Of a stretch of 64,000 nt of DNA, positions 2,308 through 61,634 are shown piece after piece. The notes under the pieces are model-generated. The model was not told where the DNA came from. It ran no database searches and saw only the letters and a list, made by a program, of their open reading frames with translations. Within the stretch, counting starts at the first letter, position 1. Each line of letters starts with the position of its first letter. The DNA is taken from the NCBI RefSeq assembly GCF_000026545.1, contig NC_011601.1. One strand, written 5' to 3'. The translations under genes were made by a program, and so were the position numbers. The stretch is from Escherichia coli O127:H6 str. E2348/69 (lineage in GTDB: Bacteria; Pseudomonadota; Gammaproteobacteria; Enterobacterales; Enterobacteriaceae).

Positions 2308-2682
<375 letters not shown>

Positions 2683-2685
2683 TCT

Positions 2686-3813
2686 ATGTCGTGCCCGGTT
2701 ATTGAGCTGACACAACAGCTTATTCGCCGCCCTTCCCTGAGTCCTGATGACGCAGGATGCCAGGCTTTGTTGATTGAACGTTTGCAGGCGATCGGTTTTA
2801 CCGTTGAACGCATGGACTTTGCCGACACGCAGAATTTTTGGGCATGGCGTGGGCAGGGTGAAACGTTAGCCTTTGCCGGGCATACCGACGTGGTGCCGCC
2901 TGGCGACGCCGACCGTTGGATCAATCCGCCGTTTGAACCCACCATTCGTGATGGCATGTTATTCGGGCGCGGTGCGGCAGATATGAAAGGCTCGCTGGCG
3001 GCGATGGTGGTAGCGGCAGAACGCTTTGTCGCACAACATCCCAACCATACGGGACGACTGGCATTTCTGATCACCTCTGATGAAGAAGCCAGTGCCCACA
3101 ACGGTACGGTAAAAGTCGTCGAAGCGTTAATGGCGCGTAATGAGCGTCTCGATTACTGCCTGGTCGGCGAACCGTCGAGTATCGAAGTGGTTGGTGATGT
3201 GGTGAAAAATGGTCGTCGCGGATCGTTAACCTGTAACCTTACTATTCATGGCGTGCAGGGGCATGTTGCCTACCCACATCTGGCTGACAATCCGGTACAT
3301 CGCGCAGCACCTTTCCTTAATGAATTAGTGGCTATTGAGTGGGATCAGGGCAATGAATTCTTCCCGGCGACCAGTATGCAGATTGCCAATATTCAGGCGG
3401 GAACGGGCAGTAACAACGTTATTCCGGGTGAACTGTTTGTGCAGTTTAACTTCCGCTTCAGCACCGAACTGACTGATGAGATGATCAAAGCGCAGGTACT
3501 TGCCCTGCTTGAAAAACATCAACTGCGCTATACGGTGGATTGGTGGCTTTCCGGGCAGCCATTTTTGACCGCGCGCGGTAAACTGGTGGATGCGGTCGTT
3601 AACGCGGTTGAGCACTATAATGAAATTAAACCGCAGCTACTGACCACAGGCGGAACGTCCGACGGGCGCTTTATTGCCCGCATGGGGGCGCAGGTGGTGG
3701 AACTCGGGCCGGTCAATGCCACGATTCATAAAATTAATGAATGTGTGAACGCTGCCGACCTGCAGCTACTTGCCCGTATGTATCAACGTATCATGGAACA
3801 GCTCGTCGCCTGA
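2686..3813 (+). CDS. dapE: Succinyl-diaminopimelate desuccinylase
   Basis: 375-aa ORF, M20 peptidase motifs ([15 protein letters not shown]). Confidence 0.95.
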
Positions 3814-28212: not shown

Positions 28213-28359
28213 TCATTCATAGTGCAGGGTCAAATCATTCCCACTCAATTATTTACTAAACTCATAACTAATTGACTGAAAACAACTTTTAAAACAATGA
28301 AATTTTTCATACCGTTTTATATACCGTCACCGGAAATCAGTACCATGAAAAATGCCATG

Positions 28360-52593: not shown

Positions 52594-52610
52594 ATTACCT
52601 TTTAGGTAAT
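52594..52610. promoter_or_regulatory. Operator-type palindrome ATTACC-N5-GGTAAT (site a)
   Basis: ATTACCTTTTAGGTAAT with TTGACA 16 bp upstream; lies between the head operon and the plus-strand island. Confidence 0.5.
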
Positions 52611-55922: not shown

Positions 55923-55941
55923 TGTTACCACCGAAGTAATA

Positions 55942-55958
55942 ATTACCGTTTTGGTAAT
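55942..55958. promoter_or_regulatory. Operator-type palindrome ATTACC-N5-GGTAAT (site b)
   Basis: ATTACCGTTTTGGTAAT about 20 bp upstream of the terminase small-subunit start. Confidence 0.5.
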
Positions 55959-58369: not shown

Positions 58370-58448
58370 TTTACCTCTCAGGTAATTTAAAACCACAAAC
58401 GAGTTAATTTCAATAGCAATGCGCATATTTTATTACCTTTTTGGTAAT
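58370..58448. promoter_or_regulatory. Two operator-type palindromes (TTTACC-N5-GGTAAT and ATTACC-N5-GGTAAT)
   Basis: Sites at 58370-58386 and 58432-58448 between the P-like gene and the 113-aa gene. Confidence 0.45.
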
Positions 58449-58484: not shown

Positions 58485-59225
58485 TTACTTGATGAGTCCC
58501 GCTGCCTTCCCTCGTCTGTATTCCTCCATAAGCCACTGTGCCGGTGTTATCCCTCCCAGGGTGGCTGCGTTCGGCATGCATCCGAAACTTCGCCCTGGTG
58601 GATGATAGGCGTTACCTGAGCCTGTTGGTGGTGTGCTCATTGGTTCTGGCTTGGCCTGTATGCTGAGTATTGGATCTGGAATCTGGTGACCGGATGCCAC
58701 TTTTGCCGACCATTCATCCAGCAGCTTTCGCGCATGCTTCTCGACTTCAGCCTCACTCAGTTGTCGCTGATACATCGCCCTGCGGGTATCACACACAATC
58801 CAGTACATGACCGGGTGGCGCCACGGGAATCTCTCGGGTCCACCAGGCTGGAGGCTTTTCTCTTTGGCGTAACGGTGAAACTCACCCATCACGTCTTCGA
58901 TGCTGATTCCCAGCACCATCTTGCTGTCTTTGCACCACTTGATGAATTGCCCAGGCGAAGGCCAGAACGGTGATTCACTGGCGCGGGCATGGCGCATTCC
59001 TGCCGATACCTGCTCACGGGTACGAACACCACCTTCAGCGAATGCAGCGATCCACTGCTGTTTTGCCGCTGTCTCCTGTGCCGGAGTCTTCAGGTTGGTC
59101 TGTTCTGCTGCCGGGAATAGCTGCTTAAGCTGTTTAAACAGGGCATCCACAAGTCGCTCTGCCGTAATGTTCACAACGTTGTCGCTACCTGCATACTGAC
59201 GGTCTGATCCGGTTAATTGGGCCAT
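58485..59225 (-). CDS. Replication protein P-like (helicase loader)
   Basis: ORF 58485..59285; SPFWPSPGQFIKWCKD matches lambda P RPFLPSPGQFVAWCRE; start uncertain (59225 ATG or 59285 GTG). Confidence 0.65.
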   Translation of the reverse strand: MAQLTGSDRQYAGSDNVVNITAERLVDALFKQLKQLFPAAEQTNLKTPAQETAAKQQWIAAFAEGGVRTREQVSAGMRHARASESPFWPSPGQFIKWCKDSKMVLGISIEDVMGEFHRYAKEKSLQPGGPERFPWRHPVMYWIVCDTRRAMYQRQLSEAEVEKHARKLLDEWSAKVASGHQIPDPILSIQAKPEPMSTPPTGSGNAYHPPGRSFGCMPNAATLGGITPAQWLMEEYRRGKAAGLIK

Positions 59226-59266
59226 AGCCTCAGCGTCTCGGTTCTGGATGGCGGTAAATACGTTAT

Positions 59267-60073
59267 TCACAGGAAATCCTCCCACGCCTCTGGACTGTTC
59301 CAGTGCGGTACGTTGTTTTCAGGTGAGGTCAGTTTGTTCTGTCTGCTGATCTGCAGACGTCTGGCAAGTTTTTGCTCCCATTGCGCATGGTGGAAAGCCT
59401 TACCCTCGGCCATCCAGTAAACCCTGAACTCTGCAAGCTCCTGCGGTGTTGGCTGGCAATCCAGGTTAATACCCTGCAGAGATGACACCCGGAGAAAATC
59501 ATCCGATGGTGACCAGAGCTCATGCATGACAAATTTCCCGAATTGCCCAAGTCCACCAGGAGGGACAAAGTTGTTAATTACGGCGTTGTTGGCGTCAGGT
59601 TCAGGCGGTACTAAACCACCAGTTTTATCGCCCCTCTCCTTCTCTTGGTTATATGACTGGTTAACTGATAGGTTCTGCATCCCGTTTTTGGGATCATTCA
59701 ACTTCCCGTTTTTGGGATCATTCAACTTCCCGTTTTTGGGTATACTCCCAATTTTGGTAACATTACCGTTTTTGGGTATACTCCCAATTTTGGTAACATT
59801 ACCGTTTTTGGGTATGTTTAAAGAGAAAACCCGGACCCTTCTTGTTGCCCCTTTTCTTTCTCCTGTATCTGAAATTAACCCCATACCGATGAGCGAAATC
59901 AGCCCTGCCTGAACCGTTTTTTTATTCAGGCTTGTGTCGGTAACCAGGCGTTCGATGCTTGGATAACACAGGTTATATTCATCGGCTCGATCAGCCATCG
60001 AGAGCAGGATGAGTTTCAGTGATGAGCTGCCCGGATTTGTTTTCCATGCCCACTCTGTTGCGTGTCTGCTCAT
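59267..60073 (-). CDS. Replication initiator O-like, with iterons inside the gene
   Basis: 268-aa ORF whose central region is encoded by tandem repeats (IPKNGNVTKIGS, KLNDPKNG); located upstream of the P-like gene. Confidence 0.65.
   Translation of the reverse strand: MSRHATEWAWKTNPGSSSLKLILLSMADRADEYNLCYPSIERLVTDTSLNKKTVQAGLISLIGMGLISDTGERKGATRRVRVFSLNIPKNGNVTKIGSIPKNGNVTKIGSIPKNGKLNDPKNGKLNDPKNGMQNLSVNQSYNQEKERGDKTGGLVPPEPDANNAVINNFVPPGGLGQFGKFVMHELWSPSDDFLRVSSLQGINLDCQPTPQELAEFRVYWMAEGKAFHHAQWEQKLARRLQISRQNKLTSPENNVPHWNSPEAWEDFL
59681..59812. repeat. Iteron array (candidate origin of replication)
   Basis: Five copies of CCGTTTTTGGG spaced 24, 24, 36 and 36 bp; the 36-bp units each contain GGTAACATTACC. 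Confidence 0.6.
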
Positions 60074-60436: not shown

Positions 60437-60670
60437 TTATCGGTCGTAGAAGAAGAGCACTAATTCAGGTTTAGACTTTGTCCATTCGCGGGAGCGACAC
60501 GCTTTAAAAAGACCTTCCATCAGACGCTTACCCGGCATCTTACGGCGACCGGTCAGGTGCGTCTGGATGTAATGACTGGTGGTACCGGCTTCAACTGCAA
60601 ATGCTTCACGCTCATCAGGAGACAGCCCCAGCCAGTGCTTTTTGAAATCAAATTTTTTTTCGTCACTCAT
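60437..60670 (-). CDS. Cro-like HTH regulator
   Basis: 77-aa ORF, first gene of the leftward operon, divergent from the repressor gene. Confidence 0.65.
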   Translation of the reverse strand: MSDEKKFDFKKHWLGLSPDEREAFAVEAGTTSHYIQTHLTGRRKMPGKRLMEGLFKACRSREWTKSKPELVLFFYDR

Positions 60671-60704: not shown

Positions 60705-60772
60705 AATTATTACCTTTCTGGTGAAAAAATCAATGATTATTACCATTATGGTAACTTTACCTTTATGGTAAT
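60705..60772. promoter_or_regulatory. OR-like region: three operator palindromes plus leftward promoter
   Basis: Sites at 60709-60725, 60739-60755 and 60756-60772; minus-strand TTGATT-N17-ATAATT promoter at 60705-60733 with the first site in its spacer. Confidence 0.6.
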
Positions 60773-60825: not shown

Positions 60826-61422
60826 ATGAAAAGTATTTATGACATAAGACGCAAAAACCTTAACGAAATCATTCGCCGGGATTTCGATGACACCCAGTTA
60901 CGCTTTGCAGAACGGGTGAAGCGTTCGCAGAACCTGGTCAACAGGTGGTGTACTGGTATCAAAAATATCGGACCTAATGCCGCGCGTATCATCGAAGAAG
61001 CAGCCCGCAAAGAAAAGTTCTGGCTTGATGTCGATCACGAACTGGACGCAGTACAGGATGATATCTTTATTCCGGCCACTGAAGATGGAGAATGGACTGT
61101 AGAGAAGCAGGCCGCCGCCACGCTCAATGCCTGGATGAGAAAGAACAGTGAAATGACATCCGAAAAGAAAGTTGCTGTTGCAGCTGGCATTGGACCTGCC
61201 ACCGTTAACCGCATCATGAAAGCGGAAGTCAGCACAACCATCGGCGTTCTTTCCTCCCTGGCGCGCGCGTTCGGGCATGAAGCATACGAGATGATTATTC
61301 CCGTCGGCTCACCTGGTGTTATCGACTATGACCACCGGATGTATGCAGCCCTGCCACAGGAAGAGAAAAACAAGATCACCTCATTCATCAACTTCGTGTT
61401 TGAGCAGAACAAAAGCAAGTAA
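60826..61422 (+). CDS. Prophage repressor (CI-equivalent) without S24 peptidase domain
   Basis: 198-aa ORF divergent from cro-like gene; HTH-like segments; no Ala-Gly / Ser-Lys autocleavage signature seen. Confidence 0.55.
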   Translation: MKSIYDIRRKNLNEIIRRDFDDTQLRFAERVKRSQNLVNRWCTGIKNIGPNAARIIEEAARKEKFWLDVDHELDAVQDDIFIPATEDGEWTVEKQAAATLNAWMRKNSEMTSEKKVAVAAGIGPATVNRIMKAEVSTTIGVLSSLARAFGHEAYEMIIPVGSPGVIDYDHRMYAALPQEEKNKITSFINFVFEQNKSK

Positions 61423-61479: not shown

Positions 61480-61634
61480 ATTACCAAAATGGTAATTTTT
61501 TCTCGTCATACCTATTGACACAATCACTTTTTGATCTGATTATTACCTAAAAGGTAATACAAGAGCGCATTGCTCAGGCAGAAACCACCACTTCGTGGCT
61601 TTCCTGTATCTACTAGTATTACCAAAATGGTAAT
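61480..61634. promoter_or_regulatory. OL-like region: three operator palindromes plus rightward promoter
   Basis: Sites at 61480-61496, 61542-61558 and 61618-61634; plus-strand TTGACA-N17-GATTAT promoter at 61515-61543. Confidence 0.6.

Follow-up and report, generated by a model that had tools for sequence, protein, structure and literature searches.

Where does vegetative replication begin in temperate phages of the epsilon15/phiV10 type (Uetakevirus), and does the repressor of such phages act at the origin directly or only through transcription? Both questions are raised by the O-like initiator gene of a prophage of this type in Escherichia coli O127:H6 str. E2348/69, which we studied within a 64,000-nucleotide stretch of contig NC_011601.1 (the window; position 1 is its first letter). 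The middle of this gene carries an array of short tandem repeats at 59679-59814, and comparison with related sequences makes it highly probable that these are the initiator-binding iterons of the vegetative origin, embedded in the gene for the very protein that would bind them. We discuss below the evidence for this reading and three other explanations of the repeats, among them a proposal, made in a preliminary description of the same DNA, that the repressor could be coupled to the origin through operator half-sites in the array.

Two sets of relatives were compared. The first comprised 87 loci of one lineage, namely the window, 80 loci from IMG/VR and 6 from GenBank/RefSeq, with upstream sequence present in 86 of the 87; the second comprised five distant comparators with the same initiator N-terminal domain (GF-2, PPompW, Vibrio phage Her, Acinetobacter phage Acb75 and Burkholderia phage Bcep176). 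Megablast against phage genomes gave almost no matches, and the relatives came from protein-level and IMG/VR searches. E. coli O127:H6 chromosomes match the window locus at 100% identity. Among phages, phiV10, phiv142-3 and further members of Uetakevirus come closest, with initiators about 78% identical.

A putative iteron array within the initiator gene

The gene, the array and its units, the latter written on the coding strand, are as follows.

59267..60073, minus strand: O-like replication initiator gene, 268 amino acids (Pfam, PHROG and PDB matches; AlphaFold2 [AF2] model)
59679..59814, minus strand: iteron array, putative origin (repeat searches; conservation in 87 loci; synonymous-site conservation)
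59814-59799, minus strand: iteron unit TACCCAAAAACGGTAA
59796-59781, minus strand: iteron unit TTACCAAAATTGGGAG
59778-59763, minus strand: iteron unit TACCCAAAAACGGTAA, second copy
59760-59745, minus strand: iteron unit TTACCAAAATTGGGAG, second copy
59742-59727, minus strand: iteron unit TACCCAAAAACGGGAA
59718-59703, minus strand: iteron unit ATCCCAAAAACGGGAA
59694-59679, minus strand: iteron unit ATCCCAAAAACGGGAT

A repeat recurring five times at 24- and 36-base-pair (bp) intervals had been noticed in the preliminary description, and it proved to be exact: CCGTTTTTGGG lies on the plus strand at 59682, 59706, 59730, 59766 and 59802 (intervals of 24, 24, 36 and 36 bp) and nowhere else in the 64 kb, against 0.04 matches expected from shuffles of the window, none of which gave five. 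Tandem Repeats Finder divided the region into a 24-bp array (59680-59740) and a 36-bp array (59730-59815), each with 100% matches. Each 36-bp unit consists in turn of two 18-bp units, the second having CCAAAATTGGG where the first has CCAAAAACGG, so that the array counts seven units, not five. A search with TCCCAAAAACGGGA recovered these seven on the minus strand, at 59680, 59704, 59728, 59746, 59764, 59782 and 59800 (spacing 24, 24, 18, 18, 18 and 18 bp), each with three mismatches or fewer; outside the array every similar site in the window has at least two mismatches, and no further copies of the unit were found elsewhere in the prophage. Read from 59814 to 59679, the centre-to-centre spacing is 18, 18, 18, 18, 24 and 24 bp. 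The 16-bp unit consensus, (A/T)(T/A)(C/A)CCAAAA(A/T)(C/T)GG(G/T)A, is imperfectly symmetric, is spaced at 18 or 24 bp and contains the positions CC-AAAA--GG-A, which are invariant over all seven units. The part of the window that the prophage occupies has no other strong tandem array.

The protein encoded around the array matches phrog_1032, "replication initiation protein", over residues 1-266, that is, over its full length (profile match, 8.4e-92). It comprises an HTH_36 winged helix at residues 18-67 (Pfam match 1.9e-10, above the Pfam cut-off), the iteron-encoded linker at residues 87-131 and a DnaT-like C-terminal domain at residues 181-250, which matched DnaT chains in the PDB at about 1e-20. 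The AF2 model of residues 1-91 has a winged helix-turn-helix fold with a predicted local distance difference test score of 92.8; a fold search with this N-terminal model against the PDB returned generic winged-helix matches only, all with E >1e-3, so that no specific relative can be named. The array encodes IPKNGNVTKIGSIPKNGNVTKIGSIPKNGKLNDPKNGKLNDPKNG, a flexible PKNG-rich linker, and the comparison with the lambda origin drawn in the preliminary description appears apt, in that this segment lies between the N- and C-terminal domains. In the public records examined (RefSeq prophage annotations, phiV10, phiv142-3 and BP9), the gene is called "DnaT-like", "primosomal" or "replication initiation", and no origin is annotated.

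A terminator scan flagged TTGGGTATACTCCCAA followed by TTTTGG at 59736-59751 and 59772-59787, on the plus strand and antisense to the initiator gene. Two adjacent iteron arms make up the TTGGGTATACTCCCAA hairpin, which is probably a side effect of the repetition; promoter and terminator consensus matches within the array, all on the noncoding strand, were rejected as features for the same reason.

Constraint on the DNA of the array

One other explanation is that the repeats matter only at the level of the protein, as a low-complexity, PKNG-rich linker that changes by slippage, with no cis-acting role for the DNA and with the origin elsewhere. The freedom of unit number, which ranges from 3 to 8 and differs even between near-identical strains, is what such a linker would display, as is the tolerance of amino acid changes within units (T/P, K/E and K/M, for example), and the flanks lack a clear A+T-rich element. 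The codons argue otherwise. Between the window and phiV10, conserved residues are encoded by identical codons at 31 of 35 positions within the array and at 98 of 167 elsewhere (p = 8e-4); between the window and GF-2, the corresponding figures are 17 of 20 and 31 of 71 (p = 2e-3). By this measure, synonymous sites in the array appear abnormally conserved, above the level of the flanking folded domains. Proline is encoded by CCC at all five of its positions in the array and at none of 13 elsewhere in the initiator gene, and the nucleotide core is retained over phages of five host genera while the peptide shifts through PKNG, PENG, PKIG and PKFG. The repeats also change whenever the N-terminal domain changes, and the uniqueness of the array within the prophage part of the window again counts against slippage in a mere linker. 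We therefore regard a role confined to the protein as very unlikely.

Conservation and covariation of the array

The array is kept in all 87 loci of the lineage, in 41 distinct versions of 3 to 8 units. Versions differ by whole units of 18, 24 or 36 bp, also between E. coli O127:H6 assemblies, and three other E. coli prophage copies of the initiator gene differ from the window by +24, -36 and -60 bp. The +24 copy comes from another assembly of E2348/69 (locus L001; CP059840.2, 2501-3331) and has one extra 24-bp iteron (831 versus 807 bp), which is either a real and rapid change in copy number or an assembly difference. In phage YDC107_2 (locus L007, approximately 2380-3392), the homologous initiator gene is frameshifted, with several of the shifts in iteron A-runs (CCCAAAAAACGGG); it is either a pseudogene or a product of homopolymer sequencing errors.

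Beyond the lineage, the core CC(C/G)AAA(A/T)(A/T)(C/T)GG stands directly after a homologous N-terminal domain in all five distant comparators, so that the hosts sharing domain and core are Escherichia, Edwardsiella, Vibrio, Acinetobacter and Burkholderia. Immunity is visibly different in GF-2 (Edwardsiella; cI type) and PPompW (an E. coli prophage; DicA/DicC type), and none of the five fetched comparator loci has a perfect TTACC-N5-GGTAA site, the operator motif of the window. The converse is seen in Tyrion and epsilon15, which share the repressor family and the operators of the window but have other initiator N-terminal domains and unrelated repeats: three copies of GGATCAGG in the Tyrion initiator (locus L091, 3501-4268) and GTCCGC/GCGGAC in that of epsilon15 (locus L088, 8180-8857). 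In the O protein of Min27, the N-terminal domain is only 29% identical and the repeats are different again. The replication module thus appears to have been swapped independently of immunity in epsilon15 and Tyrion relative to the window.

The GF-2 initiator (locus L089, 3001-3843) is a chimera: residues 1-128 are of the window type (51% identity) and residues 137-280 of the lambda O type, with 62% identity to lambda O 156-299 (E 2e-67), and the join falls just past the origin region. The window-type N-terminal domain, array and adjoining repeats therefore occupy the place of lambda's N-terminal domain, iterons and A+T-rich region. Taken together, these comparisons show that the repeat sequence tracks the N-terminal domain of the initiator, independently of both the C-terminal domain and immunity.

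Operator half-sites in the array

The preliminary description had also pointed to a 12-mer containing the operator half-sites in inverted order, and this too is present: GGTAACATTACC occurs at 59756-59767 and 59792-59803, with its pentamers facing outward as GGTAA-N2-TTACC. The repressor, its operators and the two copies of the 12-mer are as follows.

60826..61422, plus strand: repressor (Rep) gene, operator-binding protein, 198 amino acids (match to SPC32H Rep, PDB 5D50)
60706..60771, minus strand: rightward early promoter-like site TTGATT-16-AATAAT (60733-60706) with three operators (motif scans)
60710-60724, immunity region: right operator TTACCTTTCTGGTGA
60740-60754, immunity region: right operator TTACCATTATGGTAA
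60757-60771, immunity region: right operator TTACCTTTATGGTAA
61481..61633, plus strand: leftward operator cluster, perfect TTACC-N5-GGTAA at 61481, 61543 and 61619, with a promoter-like site at 61515-61543
58371..58447, minus strand: third operator pair, both perfect (58371-58385 and 58433-58447), flanking a promoter-like site at 58413-58384, just downstream of the P-like gene
59756..59767, plus strand: GGTAACATTACC, first copy, at the junction of two 18-bp iterons (encodes G-N-V-T on the minus strand)
59792..59803, plus strand: GGTAACATTACC, second copy, in the duplicated 36-bp unit

A second explanation, which concerns the control of the origin, is that Rep or the Cro-like protein binds the pentamers of the array and so directly blocks or modulates origin firing. 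The arrangement GGTAA-N2-TTACC is rare, with three occurrences in the window, of which two are in the array and one is where two neighbouring right operators meet. Rep proteins of this family form a tetramer in which the DNA-binding domains are paired in trans across dimers (PMC9638917), and unusual site geometries are therefore less easily excluded than they would be for a simple dimer. The iterons of some relatives (L052, L061) include TTACC-N6-GGTAA, one base off the operator spacing, and TTACC arms have been seen only in the arrays of the Rep-carrying lineage. This last association is confounded by phylogeny, because only five distant lineages serve as comparators without Rep.

Against direct action stands the spacing rule of the operator. 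The window holds ten perfect TTACC-N5-GGTAA sites, in the clusters 60710-60771, 61481-61633 and 58371-58447 and as single sites, and no perfect TTACC/GGTAA site with a spacing of N0-4 or N6-12. The array pentamers occur in two arrangements only, TTACC-N7 with one mismatch and the outward GGTAA-N2-TTACC; all ten perfect sites obey the N5 rule and the 12-mer never does, which is why we do not take it for an operator. An operator with one mismatch or none was found inside the initiator gene in 0 of the 87 loci, and full or near-full operators were accordingly rejected as components of the origin, in the window and in its relatives alike. Nor are the two copies of GGTAACATTACC independent, because the second lies in the duplicated 36-bp unit, and both go back to one duplication event. 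The 12-mer is formed where the right arm of one iteron (GGTA) meets the left arm of the next (TACC), and the positions that make up the pentamers are ordinary polymorphic positions of iteron arms (TACC versus TCCC, GGT versus GGG). It is missing from 22 of the 87 loci, where GGTAATGTTCCC or GGGAATATACCC, alternative iteron arms, stand in its place, and both pentamers are missing from the array in 10; the right and left operators are nevertheless present in 86 of 86 loci with upstream sequence, including 21 of the 22 that lack the 12-mer and all 10 that lack the pentamers. Finally, epsilon15 and Tyrion retain Rep and its operators with unrelated origins.

The coupling proposed in the preliminary description is thus not supported, given the N5 rule, the absence of operators from the initiator genes and the loss of the 12-mer from relatives that keep the operators, and direct action of either protein on the array is highly improbable. 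From the sequences at hand, the resemblance between 12-mer and operator is best put down to chance, a variant iteron arm (T-A/C-C-C) happening to match the arm of the operator. Weak binding of Rep at the origin, through the TTACC/GGTAA arms found as variants in the Uetakevirus lineage, is a more speculative suggestion.

A candidate unwinding element and a model for initiation

Directly promoter-distal to the last iteron lies a second repeated element, which in the window, together with its CAGAAC, reads AACCTATCAGTT AACCAGTCATAT AACCAAGAGAAG.

59639..59677, minus strand: CAGAAC and 12-bp tandem repeats CAGAACCTATCAGTT AACCAGTCATAT AACCAAGAGAAG, candidate DNA-unwinding element (position as in lambda)

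In the window, phiV10, loci L016 and L023, GF-2, Her, Acb75 and Bcep176, which represent phages of five host genera, the last iteron gives way at once to CAGAA(C/T) and two to four tandem 10-12-mers. The flank repeat AACCAGTCATAT occurs three times in phiV10 and twice in phiv142-3; Vibrio phage Her has two copies of GAACCAGTCAT, and Bcep176 has four of GAACAGTAG. In PPompW, CAGAAC lies inside a dispersed array of iteron-like sites and tandem repeats are not obvious. The segment 59640-59679 is 62.5% A+T, and in a nearest-neighbour stability profile 59642-59671 is one of the least stable 30-bp segments of the initiator gene but reaches only about the 95th percentile over the window as a whole. 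A role for 59639-59677 in unwinding is put forward here as a hypothesis.

From this arrangement and its counterpart in lambda, we infer how the origin may work. Derepression would permit transcription from the Rep-controlled rightward promoter (60733-60706), which would both supply the O-like and P-like proteins and cross the origin. The winged-helix N-terminal domain of the O-like protein would bind the seven partially symmetric 16-bp units, and the resulting nucleoprotein structure would destabilize the flanking DNA, for which the CAGAAC and 12-mer stretch at 59639-59677 is the candidate site. The DnaT-like C-terminal domain and the lambda-P-like protein would then recruit host DnaB. The DNA of the array would be used twice, since it also encodes the PKNG-rich linker between the two domains of the protein. 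The repressor would act on the origin only indirectly, through the promoter for initiator and loader, as is to be expected by analogy with lambda.

Plasmid iterons serve both in initiation and in regulatory or pairing-type roles, and a third explanation is that the units are true initiator-binding sites with another job, such as an autoregulatory roadblock or the pairing of sister copies, while initiation takes place at a different site. The precedent of plasmids and the fact that these data do not locate the start of DNA synthesis can be cited in its favor, but it is extremely doubtful given that array and ori-lambda agree in position and polarity, that GF-2 has array and flanking repeats where lambda O has iterons and A+T-rich region, and that the prophage contains no more copies of the unit.

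Several observations weigh against the assignment of the array as the iterons of the origin. The dyad symmetry of each unit, CC...GG with T/A flanks, is partial, at 3 to 5 of 8 pairs. A strongly A+T-rich segment like that of lambda was not found at the flanks of the array, where stability shows a modest dip only. Concerted evolution of the tandem repeat could lie behind some of the conservation. The window initiator could not be upheld as a homologue of lambda O: BLASTP gave E 0.49, and Pfam returned HTH_36 and DnaT only, with no match to PF04492 (Phage_rep_O). Neither an experiment on this origin family nor a description of this iteron or origin in epsilon15, phiV10 or SPC32H was found in the searchable literature, by topic or by sequence string, the primary epsilon15 and SPC32H papers lying outside that search.

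Neighbouring genes and other operator sites

The remainder of the replication module includes the following gene.

58485..59285, minus strand: lambda-P-like helicase loader gene (PF06992, 7e-56; 31% identity to lambda P, E 3e-35)

The loader gene overlaps the end of the initiator gene (58485-59285 and 59267-60073). Upstream of the initiator are an open reading frame of 66 amino acids, a Cro-like gene at 60437-60670 and the divergent repressor gene at 60826-61422; the rightward promoter-like site would drive the cro-like gene, the 66-amino-acid gene, O and P in turn. The pair of operators at 58371-58447 would mark a third repressor-controlled promoter, serving the downstream nuclease and nin-like genes. 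In epsilon15 and Tyrion, sites with the operator motif hold the corresponding position, and RefSeq annotates one of the epsilon15 sites as a repressor site.

The attachment (att) core shared with phiV10 and epsilon15 lies at 28233, and the prophage is accordingly taken to run from about 28.2 kb to past the end of the window. Within it, far from the immunity region, single perfect TTACC-N5-GGTAA sites are found at 35349-35363, 52595-52609 and 55943-55957, the last of them beside a site with one mismatch at 55925-55939. An antirepressor gene is a possible target of these distant operators.

Implications and comparison with known systems

If the assignment is correct, the likely vegetative origin has been located for the epsilon15/phiV10/SPC32H group of temperate podoviruses, to which prophages of enteropathogenic and O157 E. 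coli belong, as do phages that serve as reporter or delivery vectors. Paired with the N-terminal domain, the iteron core would provide a simple signature for finding this type of origin in phages from five host genera or more, and the locus adds a further case in which the N-terminal domain of an initiator and its origin travel as one exchangeable module. Direct action of the repressor at the origin is a tempting idea that the data do not support, and a shared 5-bp half-site is weak evidence where the real operator follows a strict spacing rule. We suggest only tentatively that the HTH_36 initiator, the CC(C/G)AAA(A/T)(A/T)(C/T)GG iterons and the element of CAGAAC with tandem 10-12-mers form an undescribed and widespread origin cassette of temperate phages of Enterobacterales, Vibrio, Acinetobacter and Burkholderia that is deeply homologous to the lambda type of origin.

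The repressor and its operators belong to a characterized family. Alignment of the window repressor with Rep of Salmonella phage SPC32H (PDB 5D50/5D4Z) shows 5 differences in 198 residues (about 97% identity), and the epsilon15 RefSeq record marks "repressor" binding sites of the motif TTACC-N5-GGTAA; unlike these operators, the pentamers of the origin 12-mer are spaced at N2 when outward or at N7 when inward, and never at N5.

A close counterpart is the replication module of phiV10 (gp43/gp44). Its initiator is 78% identical to that of the window, with the same type of array and the same operator motif, and the order of repressor gene, cro-like gene, small open reading frame, initiator and P is the same; its record describes the initiator gene only as a "putative primosomal protein" and marks no origin. 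In contrast to the window, its units are spaced at 45, 18, 18, 24 and 24 bp, have proper cores throughout and lack the 36-bp duplication, and its flank carries three AACCAGTCATAT repeats. The phiV10-type unit ACCGAAAACGGT happens to equal the consensus binding site of papillomavirus E2, ACCGN4CGGT; literature matches to the string were human papillomavirus E2 sites, and a link was rejected as coincidence.

Plasmid iteron origins such as those of staphylococcal RepA (PDB 4PQL/5KBJ) likewise combine a winged-helix DNA-binding domain with tandem repeats, and RepA gave a weak fold match to the N-terminal model, among many generic winged-helix proteins; at E >1e-3, the general fold alone is held in common. 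Plasmid iterons are usually intergenic rather than within the coding sequence of the initiator.

The closest parallel is ori-lambda. There, too, the middle of the initiator gene holds direct repeats with internal dyad symmetry, set between the codons of the N- and C-terminal domains, a P-type helicase loader gene follows immediately downstream (that of the window being 31% identical to lambda P), and the whole module is transcribed from a repressor-controlled rightward promoter; as GF-2 illustrates, both modules of N-terminal domain plus iterons are exchangeable on the lambda O C-terminal domain. In the lambda record, the annotated iterons read ATCCCTCAAAACGAGGGA, ATCCCCTAAAACGAGGGA, ATCCCTCAAATTGGGGGA and ATCCCTCAAAACAGGGGG (locus L096, 435-519), and ATCCCTCAAAACGAGGGA and ATCCCTCAAATTGGGGGA strikingly resemble ATCCCAAAAACGGGAT and TTACCAAAATTGGGAG of the window, the common elements being ATCCC..AAAAC/AAATT..GGGA. 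This likeness, found without sequence similarity between the N-terminal domains, could reflect deep homology or convergence; on the tentative reading of a widespread cassette, the near-identity to the lambda iteron (ATCCC..AAAAC..GGGA) and the clean exchange in GF-2 would together mean deep homology, with similarity of the N-terminal domains lost. The differences lie in the initiator, whose N-terminal domain is HTH_36 and whose C-terminal domain is DnaT-like, in the number and spacing of units (seven of 16 bp at 18/24 bp in the window, four of 18 bp at 20-24 bp in lambda) and in the flank, where the moderately A+T-rich CAGAAC and 12-mer repeats of the window contrast with a 40-bp A+T-rich block in lambda. 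In its architecture the putative origin corresponds to ori-lambda with O and P; of most interest beyond this are the breadth of the cassette and the likeness of its repeats to the lambda iteron.

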